NCBI GenBank assembly: GCA_041648395.1
Contig: JBAZPC010000003.1
Coordinates: 12,801 to 76,800 of the forward strand
Length of the DNA: 64,000 nt
Source: Minisyncoccota bacterium
Lineage (GTDB): Bacteria > Patescibacteriota > Minisyncoccia > UBA9983
Direction: 5' to 3'
A program made the translations under genes and the position numbers. The notes under the pieces were generated by a model. The model searched no databases, had not been told where the DNA came from, and was given only the letters and a program-made list of their open reading frames with translations. Position 1 is the stretch's first letter; the number at the start of each line of letters is the position of its first letter. Below, one piece after another: positions 7,156 through 56,352 of this stretch.

Positions 7156-7329
7156 ATGAGTCAAGATAAATTAATAAAACTTCAATGCACAAAGTGCAAG
7201 CGCATCAATTACTGGTCGCGCAAAAACAAGAAAAAATCCGCCTCTGGCGGAGAGCCTCGCAAAATCGAGCTCAAGAAGTTTTGCAATTGGTGCAAAAAAC
7301 AAACACCGCACAAAGAGGCGAAGAAATAA
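7156..7329 (+). CDS. rpmG: 50S ribosomal protein L33 (zinc-ribbon type). 57 aa, absent from the ORF track because it is under 60 aa.
   Basis: MSQDKLIKLQCTKCKRINYWSRKNKK...KFCNWCKKQTPHKEAKK. Two CxxC pairs. Position after tRNA-Tyr and before tRNA-Trp. Confidence 0.65.
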   Translation: MSQDKLIKLQCTKCKRINYWSRKNKKKSASGGEPRKIELKKFCNWCKKQTPHKEAKK

Positions 7330-10938: not shown

Positions 10939-11937
10939 TTAATTTAATTTTTTGTTTGCGATTTCATTTAATATTTGCCATCTCCTTTTTTTCTCCTCAA
11001 TTGGCACATTGTCTTTCATTTTTGCCGCCGGGGTGCCGGGGCGGGGAGAGTATTTGCCTATATACGCCTTACTGAATTTCAGTTCCTTGAATAATTTTAC
11101 CGTATTTTGGAATTGTTCTTTTGTTTCGCCCGGAAAACCGACAATTATATCCGTTGAAATTTTTACATCTGGAATGGCCTTGCGTATTTTTTTAATTAGG
11201 TTTTTGTAATGGCTGATAGTGTATTTTCTATTCATTTTTTTAAGAATTGCGTTGTCTCCTGACTGCGCTGGCAAGTGAATTTCTCTGGAGACCTTCTTAC
11301 TTTCACTTATTGTTTTTATTAACTTATCTGAAAAATCTTTTGGATGGCTGGACATAAAATAAATTTTAAAATTGTCCGGAATATCATTAATTATTTTCAA
11401 TAATTCGGGAAAACCATATTTATAACTGTTCACATTTTGGCCCAACAGCCAAATCTCTGTTGCTTTTCCGCCAGCTGGCGGATTTACCGCGTTTTTTATG
11501 TCTTGAATTATATTTTTTGCCGGCCGCGAACGCTCGCGGCCGCGGGTGTAAGGGACCGCGCAATATGTGCAAAAATTGTCGCAACCGGTCATTATGGGAA
11601 TATAAGTGGCATTAGAATTTGAGGCGATAGGTGTTAAATCAAAATATTCATCTGGATGCCAGAATTCTATGTTTTTATTTTTAGCTAATAGTTTTTTCTT
11701 ATCTTCTTTAAGAACACATCCGGCGATAATAATTTTTTTGTTTTTTAAATTTCTAATTTTCCCATAAACTCTGTTTGTCGCTGACTGCCTTACTGAACAA
11801 GCGTTAATAACCACGATGTCCGCCGATTCCGGCTTTGCCGTCATTTTATATCCGCTCATTTCCAATTTTCTCGCTATGCGCTCGCTGTCGGCCAAATTCG
11901 CCTGACAGCCAAAAGTAATGATGTGATAGGTTTTCAT
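10939..11937 (-). CDS. MiaB/RimO-family radical-SAM methylthiotransferase (no TRAM domain)
   Basis: MTTase N-domain cysteines (FGCQAN, NACSV, AGCV). Radical SAM CDNFCTYCAVPYTRG. Start taken as MKTYHI. Contains the PPAGG palindrome. Confidence 0.8.
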   Translation of the reverse strand: MKTYHIITFGCQANLADSERIARKLEMSGYKMTAKPESADIVVINACSVRQSATNRVYGKIRNLKNKKIIIAGCVLKEDKKKLLAKNKNIEFWHPDEYFDLTPIASNSNATYIPIMTGCDNFCTYCAVPYTRGRERSRPAKNIIQDIKNAVNPPAGGKATEIWLLGQNVNSYKYGFPELLKIINDIPDNFKIYFMSSHPKDFSDKLIKTISESKKVSREIHLPAQSGDNAILKKMNRKYTISHYKNLIKKIRKAIPDVKISTDIIVGFPGETKEQFQNTVKLFKELKFSKAYIGKYSPRPGTPAAKMKDNVPIEEKKRRWQILNEIANKKLN

Positions 11938-15095: not shown

Positions 15096-17262
15096 TATGC
15101 GGGTTATAGTTTGCGCACGATTTATTTGAACACCTTTCCGGAATTGTTTTTGTCCCCTCCATCATTAGCGAGCCGCAGGTTTTGCAAACATTTCCCGTAG
15201 GCCGTGATTTCATTATGAATCTGCATTTCGGATAATTATTGCAGGAAAAAAACGGGCCGAATTTGCCGCGGCGCTCCGTGATTTCCCCTCCGCCAGCTGG
15301 CGGATTGCATTTTGGGCATTTCACCCCCGTTTTTTCTTTTGCCTCCTGCTCCGCGCTTTTTTTAATAAATTTGCATTTCGGATAATTGTTGCAGGAAATG
15401 AATTTGCCGAAACGGCCTTCGCGTTCTATTAATTTTCCTGTCGCGCACTCCGGACACGCCTCGCCTGTTTCCTTTGGCCCTTCCATTATTGAACCGTCTA
15501 TTTTACGCGCGCCGGAGCATTTTGGAAATTTCGCGCAGCTCAAAAATCTTCCGTTGCGGGAAAGTTTTATAACCATTGGCCCTCCGCAGACGGGGCATTT
15601 GTGCTCATCGCCGGCCTCACCAAGGTTCGTTATTTTCTCCGCCGTTTTTTCTTTTAATTTCACGTCTTTGGAAAACGGTCCGTAGAAGTCCTTCAGCATT
15701 TTCTCGTATTTTCTTTTCCCTTCGGCTATTTCGTCCAGCTCTTTTTCCATCTCGGCGGTGAACGAGTCGCTGATGTATTGAGCAAAATTTTGTTCCAAGA
15801 AATCGCTTACCACTTCGCCGGTGTCGGTGGGCTTCAGCGCTCTGCCTTCTTTAATGACATAACCGCGGTCGTTGATTGTTTTTATTATTGAAGCGTAAGT
15901 GCTCGGCCGGCCGATGTCTCTTTTCTCCAACTCCTTGATTAGGCCCGCCTCGGTGTATCTCGGCGGCGGCTCGGTTTGCTTCCCTTCGCTTCCAATATTC
16001 AATAACTCCAAAGATTCTCCTTTTGTCAGCTTCGGCAACTCCACATCCTCTCCGCGCGCCGCTGGATCGGCGACAAGCCAGCCAGGGAAAATCATAATAC
16101 TGCCGTTTGCGGAAAAATTTGGAATTTCTCCTTCATCTATATTGGCGCTCACTTTTGTCCGCAGAATTTTCGCGTCCGCCATCTGCGAGGCGACAGTTCT
16201 CTCCCAAATGAGTTTGTAAAGTTTTTTCTGCTCGTCGTTCGCGCCGGCGGATTTCATTCCGAAATTTGTCGGCCGTACCGCTTCGTGCGCTTCCTGCGCC
16301 GTTTTGCTTTTTGACGCGTAGGTACGTGGCAACAAAAATTCTTTTCCGAATTGTTTTTCAATCGTCGCGTAAATTTGCGGTAGCGCTTCTTTGCTGACAT
16401 TTACGCTGTCGGTTCTCATGTAAGTGATAAGACCTTGTTCGTAAAGTTTTTGGGCGACGGACATCGTGCGCGACGGCGCGTATCCCAAGCGCGAGCTGGC
16501 GGTTTGCTGGAGAGTTGAGGTAATGAACGGCGGCCGCGGCGAACGCTTTGCTTCGGTTTGGGTTACATCAACTATTTGCCATTTATTTTTTTTGGCGGCT
16601 TCAATAATTCTTTCCGTTTCTTTTTCGTTTTTTGGCTGTTCATCGCAAGTGAGAATTATTTTATCTTTATTTTCAGTGGAAAATTCTCCGCTTATTACCC
16701 AAAAATTTTCCGGAACAAAAGCGCGAATTTCGCGTTCGCGTTCCATAATTATGCGCAGGGCGGGGGATTGCACACGCCCCGCGGATAGCCCGTAACGGAC
16801 TTTTTTCCATATCAAGCCACTCAAATCGTAGCCGACCAGGCGGTCCAAAACACGGCGCGCCTCTTGCGCCTTCACTAAATCCGCGTCAATATCGCGCGGA
16901 TGTTTTATTGCTTCTTTTATCGCGCTTTCGGTAATTTCGTTAAAAACGATGCGTTTCGGTTTTTTCAGCTCACATGCTTCTTTGATGTGCCAGGCAATCG
17001 ATTCTCCCTCGCGGTCGGGGTCGGTGGCGAGAATGACTTCGCTGGCTTTCTTTGAGAGATCTTTTATTTCTCTGATGACTTTTTCTTTTCCGTGAGAGAT
17101 TTCATAGCGGGGAACAAAGCCGGCAGGGATGTCGATGGCCGTCTTGTTGCTTTTCGGCAGATCGCGAACATGCCCCACGCTGGCGCGGATAATATATTCG
17201 TCTCCCAAATATTTTGAGATTGTTTTTGTTTTTGTCGGCGATTCAACAATAACTAGTTTCAT
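15088..17262 (-). CDS. topA: DNA topoisomerase I with multiple C-terminal zinc ribbons
   Basis: TOPRIM start MKLVIVESPTKTKTISKYLG, catalytic Tyr region, C4 zinc-ribbon repeats. Contains the PPAGG palindrome. Confidence 0.9.
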   Translation of the reverse strand: MKLVIVESPTKTKTISKYLGDEYIIRASVGHVRDLPKSNKTAIDIPAGFVPRYEISHGKEKVIREIKDLSKKASEVILATDPDREGESIAWHIKEACELKKPKRIVFNEITESAIKEAIKHPRDIDADLVKAQEARRVLDRLVGYDLSGLIWKKVRYGLSAGRVQSPALRIIMEREREIRAFVPENFWVISGEFSTENKDKIILTCDEQPKNEKETERIIEAAKKNKWQIVDVTQTEAKRSPRPPFITSTLQQTASSRLGYAPSRTMSVAQKLYEQGLITYMRTDSVNVSKEALPQIYATIEKQFGKEFLLPRTYASKSKTAQEAHEAVRPTNFGMKSAGANDEQKKLYKLIWERTVASQMADAKILRTKVSANIDEGEIPNFSANGSIMIFPGWLVADPAARGEDVELPKLTKGESLELLNIGSEGKQTEPPPRYTEAGLIKELEKRDIGRPSTYASIIKTINDRGYVIKEGRALKPTDTGEVVSDFLEQNFAQYISDSFTAEMEKELDEIAEGKRKYEKMLKDFYGPFSKDVKLKEKTAEKITNLGEAGDEHKCPVCGGPMVIKLSRNGRFLSCAKFPKCSGARKIDGSIMEGPKETGEACPECATGKLIEREGRFGKFISCNNYPKCKFIKKSAEQEAKEKTGVKCPKCNPPAGGGEITERRGKFGPFFSCNNYPKCRFIMKSRPTGNVCKTCGSLMMEGTKTIPERCSNKSCANYNPHKK

Positions 17263-18906: not shown

Positions 18907-18980
18907 GCTAGGGAAGCTCAAGTGGCAAGAGCGCCAGACTCTAAATCTGGAGGTTGGCGGTTCAAATCCGCCCCCTGGCA
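18907..18980 (+). tRNA. type-I tRNA with anticodon CUA (reads UAG; putative amber suppressor, amino-acid identity unknown)
   Basis: Acceptor GCTAGGG/CCCTGGC (U3-G70), disc A73. D arm GCTC-AAGTGGCAA-GAGC. Anticodon arm CCAGA-CTCTAAA-TCTGG. Variable loop AGGTT. T arm GGCGG-TTCAAAT-CCGCC. Confidence 0.7.
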
Positions 18981-21531: not shown

Positions 21532-23268
21532 CTAGAATTTATAAATAAATATTGACGAGCCTGCTCGAGCAACCGGTTCTTTTCCTTTCAGCCAGGAATA
21601 AGTGTCATCCGGTTTTATCGTGAATCCGCGCACAGGTTTTGCTATTGAGCCCTCGCGGGCGTTGGCGGATATGGCAAACCACGAGCCGGCGGACGGCTGA
21701 CCTTTTGATGACCACCAATCCTCATATTTGTCGCCGAAATAATATTTGCCGTCGCCGCCGCCGAAATAATGCAAATCAATTTTGTTGACGCTGTTCTCGT
21801 CCATCCAATCGCGCAGCCGCTTCATATCCTGTCCCCAGTCGTAATTTGAGTCGGTGGCGATTTTATAACCGTTGGCCGTACCGCCGGCAAGAATATTGTA
21901 ATAAGAAAGATAGTAAGGATAAGTGACGATTGTTGAAATAAACATAACGGCAAGCAAAATCCCCGTGAGTATGGTTTTGTTAAATTTGGCTATCACTAGC
22001 GCCACTAAAAAATAAGCGAAGGGCAGAATCGGCATAATGTGACGATGGCCGATATTTAAATTTCCGGTGATTGATTGGAAAACGTAGAAGGCGATAAAAA
22101 ATAAACTGGCGATGATGGTAAAATTATTCTTCATCCATTCGCGCGAAAAAGTTGAGCGCCCTCCTGCGCGGGCAAGAGAAATACTTTTTATGGCAAAGAA
22201 AATGGCGATAATAGTGAGAATATGAAAAATCAAACTTTCTTTGAATAGATAAAGGGTCGGGAAATACCATGGCGTCGCTTCGGAATAAACCGTTCCCATA
22301 AAATGCGAAGCGTTTCCTCCGCCCGCGCGTTGAACCACGGAAACGACGCCGAACAAATATTCAGCCAATGGTTTCAAAACATTCGTTCTTATCATCCACG
22401 CAAACGCAGGCATTGTTTTTCTGCCTAAATTGGAAGAGAGGGTGTCGCTTATGTCTTTTATTTGCAGGTCGCTCGGATAATTCCAGACGTGAAAAATATA
22501 AACAATATAAACAAGCGCCAAAGCAATCAATCCAATCATAATTATTTTCCAGAGTAAAGATAAAATTTTTCCCCTGTTAAGAATCCACCACAGCGCGACA
22601 AGGACAAAAAATATGGGCGCCAGGATGACGGTGGAAAATTTAAAAAGCAAGGCGACGCCCAAAAGCGCGCCGGCGATAAAAACATTTCTCCACGACTGAT
22701 TTTTTAAAAAAGCCAAAAAAGAGGCGATGGCGATAAAAAATCCGAAGGCCGCCGCCATGTCCGTGGTGACGTAGCGCGAGTGGGCGATGATGGTTGGTGA
22801 CATAGTGAAAAGGAAAAGTGTGAGAAAGCCAACTTTATCTCCGTAATTTTTTCGCGTCCAATAAAACAAAATCGCGCCGAACAAAACGGCAAGCAGTATC
22901 ATAGGCAGGCGGGCGAGACGGATTATTTTATCCGCGTCATTACCCGCTCGGTATAGAAAAATCTTTCCCATATCCCATTGGCGGCTAGAAATTTTTTCGC
23001 TCCAAGTCGGAATGTTTGTCGGAAAATTAAGATTTAAAAACATAAGCGGAAGAGCGGAAATGTCTTTCATTAACGGCGGGTGTTCAGGATTGAGGCGCAT
23101 ATCTTTCTGTGTCAGATAGGAATAGCCGGCGGGGATGTGCGCCACTTCGTCAAAAGTGGCAGTTTCGTCCCAAGCGGAAAGGAACGACAGCGCGAACATC
23201 AGCGCCAGCAGGCCGCCCGCGGCGATCCGCCAGCCGGCGGATACAAAATTGTTTTTTATTTTATCCAT
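21532..23268 (-). CDS. GT-C family membrane glycosyltransferase (PMT/ArnT-like)
   Basis: ~12 predicted TM helices and a C-terminal soluble domain. Tandem with a second GT-C gene. Confidence 0.6.
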   Translation of the reverse strand: MDKIKNNFVSAGWRIAAGGLLALMFALSFLSAWDETATFDEVAHIPAGYSYLTQKDMRLNPEHPPLMKDISALPLMFLNLNFPTNIPTWSEKISSRQWDMGKIFLYRAGNDADKIIRLARLPMILLAVLFGAILFYWTRKNYGDKVGFLTLFLFTMSPTIIAHSRYVTTDMAAAFGFFIAIASFLAFLKNQSWRNVFIAGALLGVALLFKFSTVILAPIFFVLVALWWILNRGKILSLLWKIIMIGLIALALVYIVYIFHVWNYPSDLQIKDISDTLSSNLGRKTMPAFAWMIRTNVLKPLAEYLFGVVSVVQRAGGGNASHFMGTVYSEATPWYFPTLYLFKESLIFHILTIIAIFFAIKSISLARAGGRSTFSREWMKNNFTIIASLFFIAFYVFQSITGNLNIGHRHIMPILPFAYFLVALVIAKFNKTILTGILLAVMFISTIVTYPYYLSYYNILAGGTANGYKIATDSNYDWGQDMKRLRDWMDENSVNKIDLHYFGGGDGKYYFGDKYEDWWSSKGQPSAGSWFAISANAREGSIAKPVRGFTIKPDDTYSWLKGKEPVARAGSSIFIYKF

Positions 23269-29233: not shown

Positions 29234-30130
29234 ATGAATATTGATTTTTTAATATCTGATTCCACTCTCAAATTTTTCGGAGCTATCCTTTTTGTTTTGC
29301 TTTTGGTGATGATTATTCTTATTGTCGCTTTGCAAAATTCAAGGAAACAAAACAGGGAACTCAAAATAAATAATTCGCGGTTGACCGAGGAAGAGAAAAA
29401 ATTCAAAGAGTTGGAAAAAACAAAGGCGGATTTCATTACCACCGTGGCGCATCAATTGAGAACGCCGTTGACCAAAATAAAATGGGCGTTTCAGGCGGTG
29501 GTAAGCGGGGAAGGGGGGAAAATAAGCGCGGAGCAGAAAAAAATCCTTCAGGTCGGAATGGAGGCGAATAATATGATGATAAAGCTGGTGAACGATTTGA
29601 TGGACATAGACAGGACAGACGACACCTACATGGGATACAATTTTGAAATCATTCCCTTGGGAATAATTATTGCCAAAGTCGTCCATGATTTTTCTTTTGA
29701 GGCGAAAGAGAAAAAAATTAATCTGGAATTTCTCATTTCCGACGAAGACACGCCGGACGTGAAAATTGACCAGGTAAAAATGGAGCTGGCGTTGAGCAAT
29801 CTTGTGGACAACGCGCTGGATTACACGCCGGAAGGCGGGGCGGTTAAAATCATTTTGGAAAAAATGGGGAATTATGCTAAGGTTTCCGTGAAAGACAGCG
29901 GGATAGGAATACCAAAAGAAGAGGCGGCGAATTTATTCACGCGCTTTTATCGGGCGAAAAACGCGGTGCGGATAAAAACGGAAGGCACGGGTTTGGGGCT
30001 TTACATTTCTAAAAACATAATAGAAGCGCACGGGGGAAAAATTTGGGTGGAGAGCCCTGCCTCGCCGAGTCAAGGCGGGGAAGAAAACAAAGGCGCGACA
30101 TTTTTCTTCACCGTGCCGTTCGCGATGTAG
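29234..30130 (+). CDS. sensor histidine kinase (HisKA + HATPase_c)
   Basis: TM helix. H-box FITTVAHQLRTPLT. N box LVDNALDYT. G boxes DSGIGIP, GTGLGLYISK. Confidence 0.8.
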   Translation: MNIDFLISDSTLKFFGAILFVLLLVMIILIVALQNSRKQNRELKINNSRLTEEEKKFKELEKTKADFITTVAHQLRTPLTKIKWAFQAVVSGEGGKISAEQKKILQVGMEANNMMIKLVNDLMDIDRTDDTYMGYNFEIIPLGIIIAKVVHDFSFEAKEKKINLEFLISDEDTPDVKIDQVKMELALSNLVDNALDYTPEGGAVKIILEKMGNYAKVSVKDSGIGIPKEEAANLFTRFYRAKNAVRIKTEGTGLGLYISKNIIEAHGGKIWVESPASPSQGGEENKGATFFFTVPFAM

Positions 30131-30181
30131 ATTTATATAAACTGGGGGACAACAAAGGACTTTGTAAAAAGTTTGTAGGTA

Positions 30182-31057
30182 TTAACTAATCGTTGAATTT
30201 TTAACTGGCCACAATTTTAAGTCTAATGAGGATACTTCTTTTTCTATTAGATTTAAATATTTTTTGAGGCCTCTTTTAGTAATAAAATCTATTATATAAA
30301 ACTCACCTAATCTCTCGGCACTTTCTTTGGCTATTTTACTATCAGGGTCAATTTTTTTTATCTCACTTACTTTATAACCACCAGTAAGACGAGAAAGCGA
30401 TGAAAAATCAAGTTTTTCATAATATGCTGGTGTTTCCAGTGCTGTTTGAAATTGTACAAGCTTTTTTTCTTTGACGATTATTTTCTTATCATAATTAGCA
30501 ACAAAAATTTTACCATTAAACAATGTGACGGGTAAGTAAATAGTAGGAACATCTTTTTTGTTGCGGGCAAACCATACTACTGCTTTTGGCAACTTGAACA
30601 CAGCCTCTGTTATTTGCAACGGTTCTATTTTTGATTTTTTACCCTTTTCTCTTCTATAAACAAGATAATTTTGTGCTAGAGAAAATTTAAAATTATATAC
30701 ATGCAAATCACTATACTCTTTGTTTTTTAAAATTTCTGTAGGAATTTCTGGCGAGTGTTTAAACTCATTATACTTACGTCGAGGGCTCTTTTGAGTGCAA
30801 ATAAAAACCCAGTCATCACCTAAATTTTGTTTACATTCAATGATAAGGTAAAGAGTGATACCATTTACCACTTTCGTGGCAATTAAATCAATTTCTCTCT
30901 TTTTTTCTTCGTCTGCGTCAAAAAAATATTGACTCGGAAAAACTTTGTATCCTTGTTTTTCTAAAAAATCTGCAGTCTCTAATTCCAAAACAAATCCGCT
31001 CTCATAGAGAAAATCAACTATTGCACTACTTTCACTTTTTTTCTTTTGTTTGAGCAT
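30182..31057 (-). CDS. hypothetical protein, possible PD-(D/E)xK nuclease fold
   Basis: EIDLIATK...LIIECKQ arrangement (D...ExK). Low-GC region next to tRNA-Gln and a GIY-YIG gene. Weak. Confidence 0.35.
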   Translation of the reverse strand: MLKQKKKSESSAIVDFLYESGFVLELETADFLEKQGYKVFPSQYFFDADEEKKREIDLIATKVVNGITLYLIIECKQNLGDDWVFICTQKSPRRKYNEFKHSPEIPTEILKNKEYSDLHVYNFKFSLAQNYLVYRREKGKKSKIEPLQITEAVFKLPKAVVWFARNKKDVPTIYLPVTLFNGKIFVANYDKKIIVKEKKLVQFQTALETPAYYEKLDFSSLSRLTGGYKVSEIKKIDPDSKIAKESAERLGEFYIIDFITKRGLKKYLNLIEKEVSSLDLKLWPVKNSTIS

Positions 31058-31086
31058 TTATTTGAATTCGTTAAAAACCTTACCAA

Positions 31087-31157
31087 CTGGGGGACATGGA
31101 TTCGAACCATGATTAACGGCTTCAAAGGCCGCTGTCCTACCATTAGACGATCCCCCA
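31087..31157 (-). tRNA. tRNA-Gln (anticodon UUG)
   Basis: U1-A72, G73. Acceptor TGGGGGA/TCCCCCA. Anticodon arm GCGGC-CTTTGAA-GCCGT. T arm CATGG-TTCGAAT-CCATG. Confidence 0.8.
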
Positions 31158-31162
31158 AAATT

Positions 31163-31411
31163 CTATATTTTTTCTAAAATACTTAATTTTTCTTTTGACC
31201 CTTTATAACTTTTTAAATATTTTTCTCTTTCCCTCGCATCCAGCCTATTCTGAAATATTTCTTTGTAAACTATTATAAATGGTGTTCTGCTTTTCGTCGA
31301 CCTTACAAAACCCTTATTATGATAATTTAATCTTATTATTAAGTCCTTGGTAATACCTACATAATAACCATTATCCTTTAAACTTTTTAAAATATAAACG
31401 TAGTAATTCAT
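31163..31411 (-). CDS. standalone GIY-YIG nuclease domain protein (YhbQ/COG2827-like)
   Basis: YYVYIL...GYYVGIT...R..H...E motif spacing. Starts 0 nt after the tRNA-Gln fragment. Confidence 0.7.
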   Translation of the reverse strand: MNYYVYILKSLKDNGYYVGITKDLIIRLNYHNKGFVRSTKSRTPFIIVYKEIFQNRLDAREREKYLKSYKGSKEKLSILEKI

Positions 31412-31454
31412 AGCTGTCCTACCATTAGCCTGCCCGGCCAGGGACGATCCCCCA
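31412..31454 (-). pseudogene. tRNA-Gln 5' fragment (nt 1 to ~29) interrupted by a 15-nt GC-rich insert CCTGCCCGGCCAGGG
   Basis: TGGGGGATCGT[insert]CTAATGGTAGGACAGC is identical to tRNA-Gln positions 1-11 and 12-27. Insert at 31429-31443. Confidence 0.55.
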
Positions 31455-31525
31455 ATATTTTCGCCTTTTTTATTTTTAACATAAATTCGCCAATTTTGCT
31501 ATAATCTGTGCTATAATAAATTTAT

Positions 31526-31921
31526 ATGACAAGTTATGTAATAAACATAGAAAAAGAGACAATAGATAATGCGAATTTTCGCAAAGTTCTTTTTACGGCA
31601 AAAAACAGCCAGCTGGTTGTTATGAGCTTGAAGCCGAAAGAAGAAATCGGCGAGGAGACGCACGGCTTGGACCAATTTTTGAGAATTGAAGAAGGGGAGG
31701 GGAAGGCGGTTTTGGACGGCGTGGAGCATGCCATCAGCGCCGGTTTCGCCGTCGTTGTTCCCGCAGGCGTGAAGCACAATATTATAAATACTTCCAGTGA
31801 AAAAGAAATGAAAATTTACACAGTTTATTCTCCGCCGAATCATCGCGACGGCGTCATGCACGCGACAAAAGAAGAGGCCGAAAAAGACGACGAACATTTT
31901 GACGGAAAAACAACAGAGTAA
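31526..31921 (+). CDS. cupin-domain protein
   Basis: Cupin motifs G(X)5HxH-like (EETHGLDQFLRIEEGEG) and PAGVKHNI. Confidence 0.6.
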   Translation: MTSYVINIEKETIDNANFRKVLFTAKNSQLVVMSLKPKEEIGEETHGLDQFLRIEEGEGKAVLDGVEHAISAGFAVVVPAGVKHNIINTSSEKEMKIYTVYSPPNHRDGVMHATKEEAEKDDEHFDGKTTE

Positions 31922-39011: not shown

Positions 39012-39626
39012 ATGAAAAACTTGATAAAAGAATTAATTTCTTCCGGGTATCTCAAGACGTCGCGGCTTATTGAGGCGTTTCAAAAAATAGACAGAAAGGA
39101 CTTTGTGCCGGAAAAAATAAAAGATGAGGCCTACATGAATTCCGCTTTGCTTATCGGCCACGGCCAAACGATTTCCCAGCCGTTGACTGTCGCTTTCATG
39201 CTGGAGTTATTGCAGCCGGAAGAGGGGAATAAAATTATGGAAATCGGCTCCGGTTCGGGATGGCAGACGGCGTTGCTGGCTTCGGCGGTGGGGGATAAAG
39301 GCAAAGTGCTTGCCATAGAACTTATTCCCGAATTGTGCGCTTTTGGAAAGAAAAATGTTTTAAAATACGATTTTATTAAAAAGGGTGTCGTTAAATTTTT
39401 CTGTTTCAATGCCGCAAAAGGCCTGCCGGAAGAAGCGCCTTTTGACAGAATAATTTCCGCCGCCTCGGCGGAAGAAATTCCCAAGGCGTGGAAAGAGCAG
39501 TTAAAAATAGGCGGAAGAATGGTTTTGCCGATAAAAGACGCTGTGTATTTGCTTATCAAAAAAAGCGAAGATAAATTTGAAGAACAAGTTTTCCCTGGTT
39601 TCGCTTTCGTGCCGTTTGTAGTATAA
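39012..39626 (+). CDS. pcm: protein-L-isoaspartate O-methyltransferase
   Basis: IGHGQTISQPLTVAFMLELL, EIGSGSGWQTALLA SAM-binding motif. Confidence 0.85.
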   Translation: MKNLIKELISSGYLKTSRLIEAFQKIDRKDFVPEKIKDEAYMNSALLIGHGQTISQPLTVAFMLELLQPEEGNKIMEIGSGSGWQTALLASAVGDKGKVLAIELIPELCAFGKKNVLKYDFIKKGVVKFFCFNAAKGLPEEAPFDRIISAASAEEIPKAWKEQLKIGGRMVLPIKDAVYLLIKKSEDKFEEQVFPGFAFVPFVV

Positions 39627-43634: not shown

Positions 43635-45494
43635 TTATAGCAAACTTTCGGGGTCTATGTTTATTTTCCACGCCGGAGACAAGGAAGAAAGAATTTCCCG
43701 CAGTTCTTTTTGCCCGGCGGGCCAGGTGCCCTGCTCCACTTTCAATAAAATATTCCAGATGTATTTATTTTTTATTTTTGGCGTAAAAGAGGAATAACTT
43801 ATCGGCTTCCATTTGGCAAGCCGTTTTTCCAATTCATCTATGTCTTTTTTAAGCTTGGGCTTATTTTTATTTTCTCCCGTAATTTTAATGAGCAAGGAGA
43901 ACGGCGGGTAATCGGATTCCTTTCTAGACTCTATTTCCGCTCTGTAAAACCCCGAAACATTTCCCTTTATTGCCTCTTCAAACACTTTTTGCTCCGGCAT
44001 TTTTGTTTGTATGTAAAATTTTTTCTTTGCCAGCAATTTCAGTTTTATGAGAAGCTGAAAAATTTTTTCATTTATTTTGAAATCAGGCAAGGTGAAAAGG
44101 GGATCAATGGAGGCGACGGCAACAACATCAACCAGCTTGTCCGCCAGCTGGCGGAGATAAGAAAACATTATTTCCGTTCCTATTAAAATTGCCCCGGGTG
44201 TTGCCAAAAAACTATCCGCTATTTCTCTACCTTGTTTTTCCGTTTTTATGGCGTCGCTGTCCATTATAAATATCTTTGCTTGCGGGAATGATTTCTTTAT
44301 TTCCTCGGCTGTTTTTCTTATACCTGCGCCATATTCTTCAAGTTTCCAGCTTTGGCAGGAAGGACATTTTTCAGGTGTAATAGTTTCTTTCAGGCATTTA
44401 TGGCAAAGCCACACTCCGCCAGCTGGCGGATTTCCTTCTTTTTTATGAAGGACAAGCGGCGATTCGCATTTTTCGCATAAAACAGGACGGGAACAGTCTT
44501 TGCACACCGTGATGGGCGAATACCCCCGCCGGTTGGAGAATAAAATTATTTTTTCTTTTTTTTCTACGGCCTCGCCGATTTTCTTTTTCAATTCGTCTTC
44601 GCCGATTACCGCCTGCTCAATTTCCGAAAAAATTCTCCGACCGGCCGTGAAGTTATTTCTATGGCAAGTTTCCGCTCTCAAAACGACATCTCCGAAAATA
44701 AGGCGAACCCCTCTTTTTTGAGCGATGAATTCCGCCACTTTTCTCACGTCAATGTACGGTCTAGTTTGAAGCTTGTAAAAAGGCGAGCTTTCTTTGTCTA
44801 TTATCAAAGTACCGATGTCTTCTCTAGGTAAAGAAAGAAACGACCTAGTGGTGGCTATAAGAAGCGGATGTTCTTCTTTTAAGGCGAAAGACCATAACTC
44901 TTTTATTTTTTTCTTTTTTAATCCGAAGTGCATTACTATGGCGTACCTTTCTATACCCTTTTGCAGTTCAGGAAAAATATTTTCCATATCGGCCGCCGTC
45001 GGCAGGCAGAGAAAAATGGAACGATTCCTAGCAAATTCTTCACGGGTGATTCTTTTGTAATATTGGATTCTTTCTTCTCTGTCTCCCTGAAAAAGAACGG
45101 TCTCGTGATATTTATTCGCGCCGGCGTCTGATTCCGTTTGGCTAGAATTTGACGCCGCCGGGTCTTCCAAAATTATTTGAGGCACAAGATCTTTAATGAC
45201 TGACCCGACCGGCGCTAGAAAATAATTTGATATCCCCTTGCACGCTTCCATAAATTTCGGCAAAAGAAATTTTTCTGCCTTTACCGTTTTTATTGATTTG
45301 AGAGAAAAATCCGCCCGGCGCAAATCCGTTTTCGCCGTTCTCAATTCCTGCGAGGAGACGACTATGGCCGGAATTATTTTTTTGCGCACCGGCACTGTGA
45401 CCAAAGCGCCCGCTTCAATGTTTTTTGAAGTGAAATAAGAGAGGTTTTCCCTAAAAACTCCTTTAGTAATCGGCACGACACTTAGAATCCTCAT
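43635..45494 (-). CDS. priA: primosomal protein N' (PriA helicase)
   Basis: Helicase motifs (GVTGSGKT-like, DEEH), Cys4-Cys4 zinc-binding region CKDCSRP...CEKC...CHKC...CPSC. PPAGG palindrome between the Cys pairs. Confidence 0.85.
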   Translation of the reverse strand: MRILSVVPITKGVFRENLSYFTSKNIEAGALVTVPVRKKIIPAIVVSSQELRTAKTDLRRADFSLKSIKTVKAEKFLLPKFMEACKGISNYFLAPVGSVIKDLVPQIILEDPAASNSSQTESDAGANKYHETVLFQGDREERIQYYKRITREEFARNRSIFLCLPTAADMENIFPELQKGIERYAIVMHFGLKKKKIKELWSFALKEEHPLLIATTRSFLSLPREDIGTLIIDKESSPFYKLQTRPYIDVRKVAEFIAQKRGVRLIFGDVVLRAETCHRNNFTAGRRIFSEIEQAVIGEDELKKKIGEAVEKKEKIILFSNRRGYSPITVCKDCSRPVLCEKCESPLVLHKKEGNPPAGGVWLCHKCLKETITPEKCPSCQSWKLEEYGAGIRKTAEEIKKSFPQAKIFIMDSDAIKTEKQGREIADSFLATPGAILIGTEIMFSYLRQLADKLVDVVAVASIDPLFTLPDFKINEKIFQLLIKLKLLAKKKFYIQTKMPEQKVFEEAIKGNVSGFYRAEIESRKESDYPPFSLLIKITGENKNKPKLKKDIDELEKRLAKWKPISYSSFTPKIKNKYIWNILLKVEQGTWPAGQKELREILSSLSPAWKINIDPESLL

Positions 45495-53838: not shown

Positions 53839-56352
53839 ATGAATCCGTACAGCCATAAAAAAATTGAAAAGAAGTGGCAAAAGTATTGGGAGAAAAATAA
53901 ACTTGACCAGGCGAAAGATTTTTCCAAAAGGCCTAAATATTATTGTCTCGTAGAATTTCCTTATCCGTCGGGAGACGGCTTGCATGTAGGCCACACTCGA
54001 AGCTATACTGCCATGGATATAATTGCCCGCAAAAGAAGAATGCAGGGCTACAACGTGCTTTATCCCATGGGCTGGGACGCTTTCGGTTTGCCGACGGAAA
54101 ATTACGCTATTAAAAAAGGAGTTCACCCAAGCGTTATTACAAAAAAGAATACAGATAATTTTAGAAGGCAATTAAAATCATTAGCTTTTTCTTTTGATTG
54201 GAGCAGGGAAATAAATACTACCGACCCGAAATATTATAAATGGACGCAGTGGATATTTTTGCAGCTTTTTAAGAAGGGCTTGGCGTACAAGCATAAAATG
54301 CCGATAAACTGGTGCTTGTCTTGCAAAGTCGGTTTGGCGAACGAGGAGGTGGTGGACGGCAAGTGCGAGCGTTGCGGGGGGCAGACGGAAAAAAGGGAAA
54401 AAGAGCAATGGATGTTGGCCATAACGAAATACGCCGACCGGCTAGATAAGGATTTGGATCCGCCAGCTGGCGGATTAGATTATCTGGAAAAAATAAAAAT
54501 CCAGCAGAGAAATTGGATAGGGAAATCAGAAGGAGCGGAGATTGAATTCAAGATTCAAGATTCAAGTTTCAAGTTTCAAGTTTTTACCACACGCGTTGAT
54601 ACTATTTTTGGTTGCACTTATGTAGTTGTTGCGCCCGAGCATGAGATAATCTCAAAACTAAAATCGCAAATATTAAATCTGAGCGAAGTTGAAAAATATA
54701 TTAATGAAGCGAAAAGAAAATCAGACCTGCAAAGGACGGAATTGCAAAAAGAAAAAACTGGCGTTGAATTGAAGGGCATGAAAGCCATTAATCCTTTCAA
54801 TAATGAAGAAGTGTCGGTGTTTGTGGCGGACTATGTTTTGGGGCATTATGGCACAGGCGCGGTAATGGCCGTCCCCGCGCACGACGAACGCGATTTTGAA
54901 TTCGCGAAGAAATATGGATTACCGGTGCGGCAATCGGTCGCCAGAAATTCTAATTTCTTAAGGACGGACGACGAGGGAAATCCTACGAAATCAGAAATTT
55001 CTGGCTCCCTTAGTGAGTGTTTTGTTGAAGATGGCGTCCTTGCTGATTCCGGCCAGTTTTCCGGCCTGACTTCTGCCGAGGCGTGCGGGGAGATGGTGAA
55101 ATGGCTGGAGGAAAAGAAGTTGGGGAAAAAAGTGGTTAAATTTCACTTGCGCGACTGGGTTTTCTCCCGCCAGCATTATTGGGGCGAGCCGATACCGATA
55201 GTGAATTGTCCAAAATGCGGCCTAGTACCGGTGCCGGAAAAAGATTTGCCGGTAAAATTGCCTGATGTAAAAAAATACGAACCGACTGACACGGGCGAAT
55301 CGCCGTTGGCGGCTATTTTAAAATGGGTGAATGTAAAATGCCCGAAGTGCAAAGGTCCGGCAAAAAGGGAAACCGACACCATGCCAAACTGGGCGGGATC
55401 GTCTTGGTATTATCTCGCATATTTAATGCTCGAAAATAAAAAATCAAATCTCAAAAATCAAAAATATGTTTGGGATAAGAAAAAATTAAAATATTGGATG
55501 CCCGTTGATTGGTACAACGGCGGAATGGAGCACACAACTTTGCATTTATTATATTCACGATTTTGGAATAAATTTTTATTTGACATCAAGGCGGCGCCGA
55601 CAAGCGAGCCGTATAAAAAAAGAACTTCGCATGGAATGATACTTGGACCGGACGGAGAGAAGATGTCCAAGTCGCGCGGCAATGTGATAAATCCGGACGA
55701 TATGGTTTCCGCTTATGGCGCAGACGCTTACCGTTTGTACCAAATGTTTATGGGGCCGTTTGATCAAGCGATACCATGGGACCCGAAAGGCATTGAAGGC
55801 ACGAGTAGGTTTTTGGGAAGAGTGTGGAAGTTGTTATCAGCCGTCAGCTATCAGTCGTCAACCAAAGAGCAAAAGCTGAAAGCTGAAAGCGGAAAGCTGA
55901 AGACTTTATTGCACAAAACCATCAAAAAAGTTTCTGAAGATATTGAAAGCATGCGGTTCAACACAGCTGTCAGTTCACTCATGATTTTATCAAACGAGAT
56001 GGAGAAACAGGAAGAAATACTGACTACTGATTACCTAATACTGGTTACTCTTTTAAGTCCTTTTGCTCCTCATATCTGCGAAGAAATTTGGAGCAAGCTT
56101 GGTAACAAAAAATCAATCTTTTTGGAAAAATGGCCGAAGTTTGATTCCCAAAAAATAAGAGAAGATAGTTTTGAATTGGTGATGCAAGTGAACGGCAAAG
56201 TGAGAGACAGGTTTGAGGCGCCGACGGATATTTCCGAAAATGACGCCATGTTATTGACATTGAAACGCGAAAATGTTAAAAAGTGGATAGGCGATAAACA
56301 AGTCAAAAAAGTCATATTTATCCAAAATAAGCTGATAAATTTAATAGCATAA
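53839..56352 (+). CDS. leuS: leucyl-tRNA synthetase
   Basis: HVGHTRSYT (HIGH), KMSKS. Editing domain. Carries the 18-bp palindrome and two heptamer tracts. Confidence 0.9.
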   Translation: MNPYSHKKIEKKWQKYWEKNKLDQAKDFSKRPKYYCLVEFPYPSGDGLHVGHTRSYTAMDIIARKRRMQGYNVLYPMGWDAFGLPTENYAIKKGVHPSVITKKNTDNFRRQLKSLAFSFDWSREINTTDPKYYKWTQWIFLQLFKKGLAYKHKMPINWCLSCKVGLANEEVVDGKCERCGGQTEKREKEQWMLAITKYADRLDKDLDPPAGGLDYLEKIKIQQRNWIGKSEGAEIEFKIQDSSFKFQVFTTRVDTIFGCTYVVVAPEHEIISKLKSQILNLSEVEKYINEAKRKSDLQRTELQKEKTGVELKGMKAINPFNNEEVSVFVADYVLGHYGTGAVMAVPAHDERDFEFAKKYGLPVRQSVARNSNFLRTDDEGNPTKSEISGSLSECFVEDGVLADSGQFSGLTSAEACGEMVKWLEEKKLGKKVVKFHLRDWVFSRQHYWGEPIPIVNCPKCGLVPVPEKDLPVKLPDVKKYEPTDTGESPLAAILKWVNVKCPKCKGPAKRETDTMPNWAGSSWYYLAYLMLENKKSNLKNQKYVWDKKKLKYWMPVDWYNGGMEHTTLHLLYSRFWNKFLFDIKAAPTSEPYKKRTSHGMILGPDGEKMSKSRGNVINPDDMVSAYGADAYRLYQMFMGPFDQAIPWDPKGIEGTSRFLGRVWKLLSAVSYQSSTKEQKLKAESGKLKTLLHKTIKKVSEDIESMRFNTAVSSLMILSNEMEKQEEILTTDYLILVTLLSPFAPHICEEIWSKLGNKKSIFLEKWPKFDSQKIREDSFELVMQVNGKVRDRFEAPTDISENDAMLLTLKRENVKKWIGDKQVKKVIFIQNKLINLIA
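54458..54475. repeat. 18-bp perfect palindrome ATCCGCCAGCTGGCGGAT inside leuS (encodes DPPAGG)
   Basis: Self-complementary. Related copies at 11468-11483, 15289-15304, 44415-44430, 62793-62809. Confidence 0.85.

Follow-up and report, generated by a model that had tools for sequence, protein, structure and literature searches.

Organization of the tRNA-Gln locus

The window, meaning the whole 64,000-nt stretch of Minisyncoccota contig JBAZPC010000003.1 that was analysed, carries on its minus strand, in this order, nt 1-12 of a tRNA-Gln, a 15-nt GC-rich insert (H), nt 13-27 of the same tRNA, an 82-aa GIY-YIG ORF, a 5-nt gap, an intact tRNA-Gln(UUG) and a 291-aa ORF (Table 1). The original prediction, made from the letters and a list of open reading frames, had placed this set of features at the same minus-strand coordinates, and the sequence itself, ARAGORN, Rfam and Pfam confirmed its presence there, with some corrections. 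The fragment is present and split by a 15-nt insert as described, but covers nt 1-27 only instead of nt 1 to ~29. It had been reported to abut the GIY-YIG ATG without a spacer, whereas a single base (T, 31412) intervenes, and the string quoted for the insert (31442..31428) was that of the plus strand, shifted by one base. The stop codon of the GIY-YIG ORF is separated from nt 1 of the complete tRNA-Gln(UUG) by 5 nt (AATTT), as predicted, and both ARAGORN and Rfam called this tRNA. The 28-mer of the fragment had no second match in the window and none in shuffled sequences. The low-GC patch was likewise recovered in the composition profile, with ~29-34% GC across ~30180-31520 compared to 42-52% in the flanks.

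Table 1. Features of the tRNA-Gln locus in the window.
Feature	Position	Strand	Evidence or remark
Displaced tRNA-Gln 5' fragment, part a (nt 1-12), TGGGGGATCGTC	31443..31454	-	identical to intact tRNA nt 1-12, 297 nt downstream
H, 15-nt GC-rich imperfect palindrome CCTGGCCGGGCAGGC, between fragment nt 12 and 13	31428..31442	-	
Fragment part b' (tRNA-Gln nt 13-27), TAATGGTAGGACAGC	31413..31427	-	identical to intact tRNA
Stand-alone GIY-YIG nuclease-domain ORF, 82 aa	31163..31411	-	Pfam PF01541
Intact tRNA-Gln(UUG), CCA not encoded	31087..31157	-	ARAGORN (31086-31158); Rfam tRNA 66.2 bits
12-nt direct repeat TGTCCCCCAGTT, proximal copy (tRNA 3' end + 2 nt)	31085..31096	-	
291-aa AT-rich ORF, N-terminal PD-(D/E)xK-like core (D57, E74, K76)	30182..31057	-	
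12-nt repeat TGTCCCCCAGTT, distal copy, at low-GC patch end; preceded by small hairpin ACAAAGTCCTTTGT	30140..30151	-	
Promoter-like site ATTACA-18-TATTAT, ~58 nt upstream of fragment	31513..31542	-	consensus scan, 9/12 matches
Low-GC patch (~30% GC) holding tRNA and both nuclease cassettes	30140..31520	.	composition profile

An AGGA motif in part b', 5 nt ahead of the ATG, is a possible ribosome-binding site, and the promoter-like site upstream of the fragment is a candidate promoter for a transcript that would span fragment, ORF and tRNA. This match is weak, as is a second one inside the GIY-YIG ORF (31300-31272). The GIY-YIG and 291-aa ORFs are the only long ORFs in the patch, the remaining open frames being of 43-46 aa and overlapping the tRNA. 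Profile searches gave neither of the two a match to an integrase family, and PADLOC matched neither, so a defence system was rejected. Rfam searches at permissive E-values (window locus and L016) and a gathering-threshold search of the whole window returned tRNAs only. An intron or other known RNA was therefore rejected, including the degenerate intron considered earlier, with no ribozyme found by Rfam and an intact tRNA lying downstream.

A minimal GIY-YIG protein

The prediction of a standalone GIY-YIG domain was borne out. The 82-aa ORF matched Pfam PF01541 (E=5e-14, 52.7 bits; cut-off 22.6) with residues 2-72 on profile positions 1-74 of 78, and the catalytic-type residues Y6, Y17, G19, R27, H31, N32 and E63 were invariant in 33 homologues. 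Close homologues numbered 157, for the most part from Patescibacteria, and the wider family comprised 5798 representatives of 50%-identity clusters (E<=0.001), homologues having lengths of 80-90 aa. Classical sequence-specific homing endonucleases (I-TevI, Seg proteins) require a separate DNA-binding domain; none was found in the 82-aa protein, of which the catalytic domain alone spans residues 2-72. Minimal prokaryotic GIY-YIG proteins have been grouped in the Slx1 cluster (PMC1564403).

Recurrence of the architecture in CPR bacteria

The same architecture was found at no fewer than 27 loci in many CPR lineages, upstream of tRNA-Gln(UUG), tRNA-Gln(CUG) or tRNA-Glu(CUC) (L001-L017, L020, L022, L027, L034, L043, L051, L060, L323, L324 and the window locus). 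About ten more loci were visible via mis-annotated N-terminal extensions that translate part a, H and part b' (DRPWPGRLMVG...). Gene callers often extended GIY-YIG ORFs through the tRNA fragment in this way (N-terminal DRPWPGR...) or into the tRNA. The ORF and the intact tRNA were 0-15 nt apart or overlapped. The tRNA 5' part was duplicated in all occupied loci, and the fragment's acceptor stem equalled that of the adjacent tRNA in 22 of 25 loci representing 14 acceptor types (6% under random pairing; 0 of 10000 permutations), L014 being a locus where the fragment differs from its neighbour. In the other loci part b' followed the local tRNA for 12-27 nt and then diverged near the start codon, and it was Glu-like at tRNA-Glu loci. 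Between lineages the ORFs were only 60-75% identical. Given this old divergence, the identity of the fragment to the local tRNA does not stem from a single recent event and needs continued within-lineage homing, gene conversion or selection.

Targets of the three kinds (UUG, CUG and Glu-CUC) were intermixed inside GIY-YIG clades, where clades come from a neighbour-joining tree on 80 residues and taxon labels from MAGs, both being weak evidence. The closest relative of the window's protein (L323; 76% aa identity) is encoded next to pyrG, at a tRNA-Gln(CUG) whose acceptor stem differs, and the gene neighbourhoods of occupied loci were unrelated. Further GIY-YIG relatives, duplicating their targets in the same manner, occurred at tRNA-Lys, -Met and -Pro and within a protein-coding gene, at its 5' end.

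Most comparable sites were empty. Among 120 CPR tRNA-Gln(UUG) loci with the same anticodon arm, ~110 had no GIY-YIG gene or H within 600 nt. L080 and L096, relatives with a 72%-identical cupin neighbour, were empty too. Where dnaX and tRNA-Gln are syntenic, the end of dnaX lay -15 to +60 nt from the tRNA at empty loci, compared to a gap of 330-397 nt, the size of the cassette, at the occupied loci L173, L014, L012 and L043. The best flank identity between an occupied and an empty locus was 70-77% at the nucleotide level, with no isogenic pair found, so the insertion boundaries are approximate. Vertical syntenic conservation was rejected by the empty sites and the differing neighbourhoods. A GIY-YIG gene fixed next to tRNA-Gln without variability or fragment, the pattern that the original prediction held would speak against it, was not seen, since ~110 of the 120 loci are empty and the fragment is present at every occupied one. 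Its proposal of a small mobile insertion around a homing-endonuclease-type gene, targeting and regenerating tRNA-Gln, is thus supported by the comparison of loci.

Several loci displayed repetition and decay. L006 contains tandem arrays and an internally deleted ORF copy, the leftmost units of L005 and L022 are degenerate, L056 is truncated and L060 frameshifted, and L014 and L130 hold full-length pseudo-tRNAs interrupted by H. The resident tRNA-Gln of L130 (acceptor TGCGGGG/CCCCGCA) is interrupted in its D-arm by the GIY-YIG ORF together with a different intact tRNA-Gln (acceptor TGGGAGA/TCTCCCA), with ~7 nt duplicated and three GC hairpins within the dead tRNA pieces.

The H hairpin

In 26 of 27 loci H separated nt 12 of the tRNA from nt 13, a position common to two D-arm types (GTC/TAAYGG and GCC/AAGYGG, the slash marking the site) and to three tRNA species. 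It lay upstream of the ORF and without exception on the sense strand, mostly 12-24 nt from the ATG. Its arms were identical in 22 of 23 loci, with an identity of 99.4% compared to 41% at codon position 3 and 69% at positions 1+2 of the ORF. H is the most conserved part of the whole architecture and no incidental mini-element. The insert had been said to resemble other GC-rich mini-elements of the window; this did not hold, as H is absent elsewhere in the window with 2 mismatches allowed and the other GC palindromes differ in sequence, and a window-wide repeated mini-element was rejected. H was also not found outside a GIY-YIG/tRNA context in 1.2 Mb of fetched CPR DNA, and Rfam gave no match to it. 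H is doubled in P0009, and it also exists in nested or long forms; the long-form variants align poorly, with little clean covariation.

Viral contigs contained no GIY-YIG relatives. They gave 120 matches to the H 15-mer, all without tRNA-fragment context and all but one in DNA of >=45% GC, which for these reasons look like chance; a phage-borne element was rejected.

The conservation of H suggests a cis element of the cassette under strong constraint, a view that belongs to the homing-type reading set out below and is on balance probable with it. Most likely it would be the nuclease's own recognition structure, either a DNA hairpin or cruciform, or an RNA operator ~15 nt before the start codon. 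The proposed role is an argument from conservation only, since the folding energies of the H leader were unremarkable compared to shuffles (Z-scores -1.5 to 0, not significant).

The 291-aa ORF and the 3'-side repeat

The predicted AT-rich 291-aa ORF with a D...ExK signature proved real, with D57, E74 and K76 invariant across a rare 13-member family. Pfam scores for UPF0102/YraN (18.6 bits) and NERD (15.7 bits) were both below cut-offs, and a sequence match in the PDB was 3fov (E=0.08). The AlphaFold model (pLDDT 74.8) reached 90-97 in an N-terminal alpha/beta core with the motif on its strands. Its best Foldseek matches in the PDB (AF1548, the R2 restriction-like endonuclease domain, Hjc, MspJI, Cas4 and I-Ssp6803I) were all PD-(D/E)xK nucleases, though weak (E 0.015-0.2, ~65 residues).

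The two ORFs are adjacent, as had been pointed out, but appear to be separate units. No homologue of the 291-aa ORF was found at other GIY-YIG loci, and its homologues lie mostly away from tRNAs and GIY-YIG genes, in unrelated contexts, so it was rejected as a regular partner of the GIY-YIG cassette. Its GC content was below that of the flanks in each genome context examined, and in L319 a tRNA-Gln-like 3' fragment precedes the homologue. The tRNA 3' end TGTCCCCCAGTT, repeated at 31096-31085 and 30151-30140, bounds the ORF. Downstream repeats of a tRNA 3' end also occurred in L004, L016 and L173, whereas upstream and reverse-complement controls had no such repeats. Within the reading that we favour on balance, the 291-aa ORF would be a second, independent nuclease cassette that entered this tRNA at its 3' end and duplicated 12 nt of that end.

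A putative homing-type cassette and alternative readings

The reading we favour, with modest confidence, is a compact selfish nuclease cassette of homing type that would target the D-arm of tRNA-Gln/Glu genes in CPR bacteria (Patescibacteria) and rebuild the tRNA, H being a cis element that it cannot do without. The minimal Slx1-like GIY-YIG nuclease would cut tRNA-Gln/Glu gene DNA at or near the D-stem/D-loop junction (between nt 12 and 13), and the break would be repaired off an occupied allele, copying in H, nt 13-27, the ORF and a replacement for nt 1-12; in cross-lineage events the ORF and a whole tRNA would be copied in. An intact tRNA would thereby be re-formed on the downstream side, the old 5' part staying behind upstream as a dead remnant. 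With the target restored, further rounds and hence tandem arrays could follow, and recombination between repeats may give ORF-less pseudo-tRNAs interrupted by H. H would ruin the target site that the leftover fragment repeats, and would interrupt a direct repeat able to delete the ORF. Lying between the original tRNA position and the tRNA, the ORF is probably co-transcribed with an essential tRNA. The anatomy is read directly from the loci; from it we infer cleavage near nt 12 and 13 (solely from the constant position of H), mobility and the later steps. Homing does not typically leave an uninterrupted target behind, as this scheme does with the intact tRNA. A strict model in which the element carries part b' does not predict the Glu-like b' at tRNA-Glu loci.

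Taken by itself, the 27-nt duplication in the window could reflect replication slippage, a chance tandem duplication of the tRNA 5' end next to an unrelated small gene and with an unrelated GC insertion. Such an origin has practically no probability, and is already refuted, as more than 27 independent loci, with 14 acceptor stems, repeat the three-part layout and its H at one and the same nucleotide. A single island is a more serious, if unlikely, alternative. The low-GC patch at ~31412..30152, with the GIY-YIG ORF, tRNA-Gln and 291-aa ORF, would be one immigrant unit in a resident tRNA-Gln. The ends of the resident gene would then be the nt 1-27 fragment (with H) and the distal TGTCCCCCAGTT, and the functional tRNA would have been imported, an idea we also think unlikely. 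The patch spans exactly the distance from fragment to distal repeat, the resident tRNA of L130, of another acceptor type, is split around an ORF and a foreign tRNA, the L014 fragment is unlike the adjacent tRNA, and a tRNA-Gln-like 3' fragment stands ahead of the 291-aa homologue in L319, all as an island would have it. In the window, however, the fragment equals the intact tRNA over all 27 nt and nothing marks the tRNA as foreign. The scattered contexts of the 291-aa homologues, their absence from other GIY-YIG loci and the independent 3'-side insertions with their own tRNA-end repeats (L004, L016, L173) also argue against one unit.

A further alternative, which we hold to be rather improbable, is a hairpin-dependent transposon, where the GIY-YIG protein would be a structure-specific nickase mobilising GC-rich hairpins like H into loops or junctions of hairpin DNA, the ORF being autonomous and solo hairpins MITE-like. 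Each subfamily has its own palindrome beside, enclosing or following the ORF: H in that of tRNA-Gln/Glu, CCTCGGCC..GGGCGAGG in L173 and L130, CCCGCCTTGACTCG..CGAGGCAGG in L162 and L092, TCCGCCC..GGGCGGA at tRNA-Lys, TCCGCCAAAAGGGCGGA at tRNA-Met and, in non-CPR bacteria, a 12-14-nt inverted repeat CCCTGTTAAATA..TATTTAACAGGG around a 277-bp unit. Insertion points are loops or junctions (between nt 7 and 8, between nt 12 and 13, the anticodon loop). Signs that H behaves independently are its double (P0009), nested and long forms, the three hairpins within the dead tRNA remnants at L130 and a solo L162-type hairpin within the window's histidine-kinase gene. Slx1-family enzymes, with which minimal prokaryotic GIY-YIG proteins are clustered (PMC1564403), are structure-specific. 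Against this stand the confinement of H to the GIY-YIG/tRNA context in the 1.2 Mb of CPR DNA, the scarcity of clear covariation in its long forms and a partial tRNA duplication that hairpin insertion alone leaves unexplained. GIY-YIG enzymes, moreover, act by DNA hydrolysis and are not known to perform strand transfer. A broader and speculative proposal is somewhat less improbable, though still unlikely: the ~80-aa Slx1-like GIY-YIG proteins and their cognate GC-rich or inverted-repeat hairpins may form an unrecognised class of hairpin-dependent, nuclease-only mobile elements that insert in loops or junctions of structured DNA (tRNA cloverleaves, hairpins, gene 5' ends) and rebuild the target by terminus duplication. 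H would be the recognition structure of the nuclease and the left end of the element, and the mini-palindromes in CPR genes their non-autonomous offspring. Lastly, the GIY-YIG gene could be a domesticated module with a host function tied to tRNA-Gln/Glu, its leader and H forming a regulatory or decoy RNA matched by selection to the local tRNA; we give this little credence. For the leader, an autoregulatory operator, a tRNA mimic or an inhibitor like those of type III toxin-antitoxin systems could be envisaged, with as little weight. The constrained spacing of H to the ATG would suit such a module, as would the co-variation of the fragment with the local tRNA in spite of old ORF divergence, and the extreme conservation of H would fit a protein- or RNA-bound site. 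An Slx1-like GIY-YIG domain is also found fused to TrmH, which methylates G18 in the D-loop, and involvement in RNA metabolism has been brought up as a possibility (PMC1564403). The gene is, however, absent from most tRNA-Gln loci, has no PADLOC match, occurs as arrays and as deleted, truncated and frameshifted copies, and its relatives at tRNA-Lys, -Met and -Pro and a gene 5' end follow the same pattern of duplication. No characterised GIY-YIG enzyme is known to act on anything but DNA, which also counts against it.

Comparison with known systems

The putative homing-type cassette resembles tRNA-integrating islands and prophages (attL/attR) in that direct repeats of a tRNA segment flank foreign low-GC DNA and the tRNA is regenerated. 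Unlike these, the two cassettes are of 0.3 and 0.95 kb with one nuclease each and no integrase, and the GIY-YIG cassette, unlike integrases, uses the tRNA 5' end. Group I introns with homing endonucleases in tRNA genes of bacteria (such as the tRNA-fMet intron, which encodes I-Ssp6803I) are similarly nuclease-driven and land in a conserved tRNA gene. The cassette differs from them in having no ribozyme, in lying in the D-arm and not the anticodon loop, and in a tRNA restored via duplication, not splicing. I-Ssp6803I is among the weak fold matches of the neighbouring 291-aa ORF.

Hairpin-dependent elements include REP/RAYT, IS200/IS605 ends, integron attC sites, yeast mitochondrial GC clusters and Rickettsia palindromic elements. 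By analogy, H may be likened to these, being a short palindrome, imperfect at a conserved mismatch and variable at its apex, that goes with a single enzyme family and is conserved far above the silent sites of the neighbouring gene. The GC-rich palindromes inserted in frame within genes of an AT-richer genome suggest the same comparison. Unlike such elements, H is single-copy and confined to the tRNA fragment, and in contrast to IS200/IS605 and REP/RAYT the sole enzyme is a GIY-YIG hydrolase domain, with no HUH (Y1) transposase or tyrosine recombinase.

T4 SegB is a GIY-YIG homing endonuclease within a tRNA gene cluster that recognises a conserved T-psi-C stem-loop motif of tRNA genes, cleaves the endonuclease-less allele and is inherited together with flanking tRNA markers (PMC2330249). 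Like SegB and the Seg family, the cassette is a free-standing GIY-YIG gene among tRNA genes with a sporadic distribution among relatives. SegB is a phage protein with extra DNA-binding regions, whereas the cassette protein is a bare 82-aa catalytic domain in bacterial chromosomes, and no Seg element has been described in which a conserved hairpin splits a duplicated 5' part of the target tRNA. Mitochondrial mORFs carry a replacement gene terminus while the native terminus persists as a displaced duplicate, as in Allomyces atp6 and Glomus atp6, atp9, cox2 and nad3, with LAGLIDADG or, in atp9, GIY-YIG nucleases (PMC3630166). L130 carries an equivalent replacement, a whole tRNA. The cassette is nevertheless the mirror image of an mORF, displacing the 5' instead of the 3' end, and it targets a tRNA gene of a CPR bacterium where mORFs target protein-coding genes. 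Its duplicate mostly matches the functional copy exactly instead of having diverged, and a conserved GC hairpin is added.

Implications for CPR bacteria and GIY-YIG proteins

Full-text literature searches turned up nothing on GIY-YIG cassettes at tRNA-Gln genes, on H or on the inverted-repeat units of 277 bp, and this layout, recurring in dozens of ultra-small (CPR) bacteria, appears undescribed so far. Stand-alone ~80-aa GIY-YIG proteins (COG2827/Slx1-like) are very common in bacteria, and the family would gain a concrete, testable role as the engine of tiny selfish tRNA-gene cassettes. Biochemical work could take the near-invariant 15-nt hairpin as a candidate recognition site, and it may be usable as a minimal structure- or site-specific nuclease tool. 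CPR bacteria have tiny genomes with mostly single-copy tRNA genes. If the homing-type reading is true, they would tolerate a parasite placed between a tRNA and its promoter, one that can carry or rebuild the essential gene it interrupts.

The tRNA-Gln locus

Reading of the minus strand together with ARAGORN, Rfam and the ORF list bore out every element of the original prediction, which had placed a GIY-YIG nuclease gene between a tRNA-Gln 5' fragment and an intact tRNA-Gln, next to a PD-(D/E)xK-like ORF. The fragment is made of two exact copies of stretches of the intact tRNA, split by a GC-rich imperfect palindrome (H), and the fragment 28-mer had no further match in the window and none in shuffles. 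A single base separates the fragment end from the start of the 82-aa GIY-YIG ORF, whose stop codon lies 5 nt before tRNA-Gln nt 1. The encoded protein is identical to an annotated protein of a Candidatus Paceibacterota MAG, which places the host among the CPR/Patescibacteria, and its catalytic residues are invariant among homologues. The stretch from the fragment to the 291-aa ORF forms a patch of ~30% GC in a background of 42-52% GC. The fragment with H and the GIY-YIG ORF, beside the intact tRNA, is termed the cassette below, and tRNA loci with or without it occupied or empty.

A 24-codon upstream ORF (peptide MLKIKKAKILGDRPWPGRLMVGQL, then a stop) spans the tRNA fragment and H and terminates in an ATGA overlapping the GIY-YIG start codon, so translational coupling could be possible; several database proteins have this peptide as an in-frame fusion with the nuclease. 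Elsewhere in the window, a tRNA with anticodon CUA could be an amber-suppressor-type tRNA.

Features of the tRNA-Gln locus and other elements of the window
Feature	Position	Strand	Basis
tRNA-Gln fragment, exact copy of nt 1-12	31454..31443	-	sequence match to intact tRNA
H, 15 nt, CCTGGCCGGGCAGGC, between the two fragment blocks	31442..31428	-	
tRNA-Gln fragment, exact copy of nt 13-27	31427..31413	-	sequence match to intact tRNA
24-codon upstream ORF	31408-31482	-	
82-aa GIY-YIG ORF	31411..31163	-	PF01541, 52.7 bits, E=5e-14
Intact tRNA-Gln(UUG)	31157..31087	-	ARAGORN, Rfam
291-aa ORF, downstream of tRNA-Gln	31057..30182	-	
12-nt direct repeat of tRNA 3' end, TGTCCCCCAGTT, bounding the 291-aa ORF	31096-31085 and 30151-30140		
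Palindrome CCCCGCCTTGACTCGGCGAGGCAGGG	30054-30085	-	
Histidine-kinase gene	29234-30130		
CCGCCAGCTGGCGG, exact copies	11468-11481, 15290-15303, 44141-44154, 44416-44429, 54460-54473		
CCGCCAGCTGGCGG, variants	23227-23240, 62795-62808, 7238-7250, 39457-39471		
tRNA, anticodon CUA	18907-18980	+	Rfam 65.6 bits; ARAGORN label 'Pyl'

Recurrence of the cassette and conservation of H

Relatives of the 82-aa protein were sought in one genome per species, resulting in 74 loci. At ~24 of these, nearly all the closest relatives included, a same-strand tRNA begins within ~20 nt of the ORF end (92 nt in the exceptional L006). The tRNAs are Gln-UUG, Gln-CUG and, twice, Glu-CUC, and the tRNA-adjacent loci carry the labels of many different CPR classes. 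Their upstream regions always display the same leader, consisting of tRNA nt 1-12, H, nt 13 to ~27 and the ATG. About 10 further loci show up as database proteins with mis-called N-termini that translate this leader (DRPWPGRLMVG...), one of which (P0009) carries two tandem copies of H.

H sits exactly between tRNA nt 12 and 13 in 26 of 27 loci (the window, L323 and L324 counted), and does so in two D-arm contexts (GTC/TAAYGG and GCC/AAGYGG, slash at the insertion point); at L051 it occupies the anticodon loop instead. The short form is the 15-mer of the window, and in the long forms (30-34 nt) the arms CCTGGCC and GGGCAGGC are retained and a variable inner hairpin is added. The intermediate form at L324, CCTGGCC-GGGCAGGC-CCGTCCGC-GGGCAGGC, suggests that the short form was derived by slippage between repeated 3' arms. 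Across 23 loci the mean pairwise identity of the H arms was 99.4%, compared to 69% at codon positions 1+2 and 41% at codon position 3 of the ORF, which makes H far more constrained than any other sequence here. H had no match in Rfam.

Empty and occupied tRNA-Gln genes

The original prediction had read the locus as a mobile insertion, and comparison of tRNA-Gln loci for presence or absence of the cassette supports this reading, the cassette being sporadic. A metagenome scan with the D-arm/anticodon-arm of the window tRNA-Gln as query gave 120 tRNA-Gln(UUG) loci, ~110 of them with neither a GIY-YIG gene nor H within 600 nt upstream. L080 and L096, whose cupin neighbour is 72% identical to that of the window, have clean empty tRNA-Gln genes. 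More divergent GIY-YIG genes were found at six of the 120 loci (L079, L092, L127, L130, L162, L173), all preceded by an interrupted tRNA fragment with GC-rich palindromes other than H, located at nt 7/8 or 12/13 wherever the fragment is that of tRNA-Gln.

The upstream neighbour of tRNA-Gln is frequently dnaX, which at empty loci ends -15 to +60 nt from the tRNA. At four occupied loci (L173, L014, L012, L043) the distance is 330-397 nt, equal to the cassette length, and at occupied dnaX loci the fragment stands where the tRNA stands at empty ones. The placement of dnaX directly before tRNA-Gln is a widespread CPR synteny (L075-L194; e.g., L156, L158, L170, L103); at L156 and L158 the dnaX frame enters the tRNA by 15 nt and ends at the D-loop TAA, like many GIY-YIG ORFs.

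The closest relative of the window's GIY-YIG protein (L323; 76%) lies beside pyrG and a tRNA-Gln(CUG) with another acceptor stem, and its fragment again matches its local tRNA. In a neighbour-joining tree, weak evidence because it is based on only 80 residues, the GIY-YIG clades follow D-arm type, with UUG, CUG and Glu-CUC targets and short and long H intermixed.

Fragments match the local tRNA

In 22 of 25 loci the fragment and the tRNA beside it have identical acceptor parts, although 14 acceptor types are represented. Random pairing would give a match in 6%, and the observed value was reached in 0 of 10000 permutations. Because the ORFs diverged long ago, one recent event cannot explain this match, which suggests that homing, gene conversion or selection continues within lineages.

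Two of the exceptions are L130 and, with a similar mismatch, L014. At L130 (740-1265) an intact tRNA-Gln is followed downstream by an interrupted one, whose 3' end (...CCCCGCAG) pairs with the piece found upstream, TGCGGGG.... The acceptor stem of the intact tRNA beside the ORF (TGGGAGA/TCTCCCA) differs from that of the resident (TGCGGGG/CCCCGCA), and the resident tRNA-Gln was therefore split in its D-arm by a unit of a GIY-YIG ORF and a second tRNA-Gln. The junctions show a duplication of ~7 nt, and three GC-rich hairpins are inserted in the dead pieces, at nt 7/8, at nt 12/13 and in the anticodon loop. At L014 (2725-2850) a 13-nt perfect inverted repeat, TCCTGAACAAAAC ... GTTTTGTTCAGGA, lies on both sides of the intact tRNA-Gln, with the GIY-YIG stop codon within its left arm; since the repeat flanks the tRNA, pairing of its arms could give a long hairpin with the tRNA in its loop.

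Arrays and decayed copies

Both arrays and decayed copies are present among these loci, and may be read as traces of a selfish life cycle. Three tandem units stand at L006, two of which share the same internal ORF deletion, and L005 and L022 have degenerate units upstream of an intact one; the copy at L056 is truncated and that at L060 frameshifted. Full-length pseudo-tRNAs with H at nt 12/13 and without the ORF occur at L014 and L130, as would be expected of recombination between fragment nt 13-27 and the corresponding stretch of the intact tRNA. Many GIY-YIG ORFs enter the tRNA, taking as stop the TAA of GTCTAA or the TAG of GTAGCC.

At L324 (150-3700) three small GIY-YIG genes lie within 6 kb, beside tRNA-Gln, tRNA-Pro and tRNA-Ala. 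The first comes with the canonical H leader, at tRNA-Gln(CUG), another, of an inverted-repeat type, lies immediately 3' of tRNA-Gln(CUG), and the last stands between tRNA-Pro and tRNA-Ala after a 4-fold 22-nt tandem repeat and a tRNA-like fragment carrying its own hairpin.

The 291-aa ORF and the tRNA 3' side

The 291-aa ORF belongs to a rare family (13 homologues) with invariant D57, E74 and K76. Profile matches to YraN/UPF0102 and NERD were sub-threshold, and the top PDB matches of its AlphaFold model (pLDDT 74.8) were exclusively PD-(D/E)xK nucleases, all weak (E>=0.015). Of the TGTCCCCCAGTT copies that bound the ORF, the distal one lies at the end of the low-GC patch. Short non-coding insertions directly after tRNA-Gln at L004 (tRNA end +108), L016 (+193) and L173 (+150) each have a 15-18-nt repeat of the tRNA 3' end after them, with no such repeats in upstream or reverse-complement controls, and the tRNA-Gln 3' end is therefore also an insertion hot spot.

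Homologues of the 291-aa ORF were AT-richer than their surroundings wherever examined; only one (L319) adjoins a tRNA fragment, and none lay beside a GIY-YIG gene in the contexts examined. We read the 291-aa ORF as a putative second, independent nuclease cassette on the tRNA 3' side. That the whole low-GC patch, tRNA included, arrived as one unit, as at L130, is a less probable alternative.

The wider GIY-YIG family and other palindromes

The family comprises 5798 representatives of 50%-identity clusters at E<=0.001, nearly all of 80-140 aa. The more distant relatives repeat this pattern at other targets: L018 has a tRNA-Lys target with a repeated 3' end, L067 and L071 a tRNA-Lys fragment split by TCCGCCC..GGGCGGA, and the Bacteroidetes locus L058 a tRNA-Met target with TCCGCCAAAAGGGCGGA and tandem ORFs. 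At L047 (~2400-2860; Maribellus sp.) a GIY-YIG cassette is flanked by a 41-nt duplicate of a protein-coding gene's 5' end (MKKTILVTGGAGFI...), apparently the same target-regenerating logic as at tRNAs, applied to the first codons of a protein gene.

In most non-CPR relatives the ORF stands between the arms of a 12-14-nt perfect inverted repeat, CCCTGTTAAATA..TATTTAACAGGG, together making up a unit of ~277 bp (L019, L021, L024, L026, L028-L033, L035, L036, L038, L039, L041, L045, L046, L050, L061-L063, L068-L070, L074). The hosts are mostly non-CPR bacteria (Desulfobacterales, Bacteroidetes and others), the ORF stop codon lies inside the right arm, and some loci have extra nested left arms; at L324 the arms form a hairpin just 3' of the ORF instead of enclosing it. 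Taken together, the distant relatives and the inverted-repeat units show the pairing of a nuclease ORF with a cognate palindrome to be general.

The likeness of H to other GC-rich mini-elements of the window, suggested by the original prediction, did not hold, as the CCGCCAGCTGGCGG palindromes differ from H. This 14-nt palindrome, often with T...A flanks, has five exact copies and close variants in the window, and all six sites compared with the ORF map (the exact copies and the variant near 62795) fall within long ORFs. They resemble either in-frame GC-rich mini-insertions, much like the Rickettsia palindromic elements, or a repeated coding motif. A further GC-rich palindrome, CCCCGCCTTGACTCGGCGAGGCAGGG, lies in frame within the histidine kinase's C-terminal ATPase domain (peptide PASPSQGG) and is of the same sequence family as the hairpin splitting the tRNA fragment before the GIY-YIG genes of L162 and L092; this family has only three true copies, plus one unrelated match, in 1.2 Mb of fetched DNA.

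Proposed mechanism and known systems

We propose that the predicted nuclease cleaves the DNA of tRNA-Gln/Glu genes where the D-stem meets its loop, and that repair off an occupied allele would copy in H, nt 13-27, the ORF and a replacement nt 1-12, or alternatively the ORF and a whole tRNA. Copying would re-form the tRNA, allowing further rounds and hence arrays, and the GIY-YIG ORF would be transcribed together with the tRNA. H may be the cognate structure of the nuclease, and may also inactivate the spare target in the leftover fragment and interrupt a repeat able to delete the ORF. Weak points of this mechanism are that the 82-aa protein is a bare catalytic domain without a DNA-binding module, that a regenerated target is atypical for homing, and that the Glu-like nt 13-27 of fragments at tRNA-Glu loci would not be predicted if this stretch were strictly carried along.

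A group I intron, an integrase island and an HUH hairpin element were rejected for the cassette, there being no ribozyme, no integrase and the wrong enzyme, respectively. The cassette comes closest to two known systems. T4 SegB, a GIY-YIG homing endonuclease encoded within a tRNA cluster, recognises a tRNA motif (PMC2330249), and mobile endonuclease ORFs of mitochondria bring a replacement gene terminus with them (PMC3630166). A 2006 superfamily survey singled out the minimal stand-alone Slx1-like GIY-YIG domains of prokaryotes and assigned them no mobile-element role (PMC1564403), and our literature search found no description of the GIY-YIG/tRNA cassette architecture. We rate the cassette as a probable homing-type nuclease cassette with target duplication, a variation on a kind already known, with a smaller but real probability that it stands for a new class of mobile elements dependent on hairpins.
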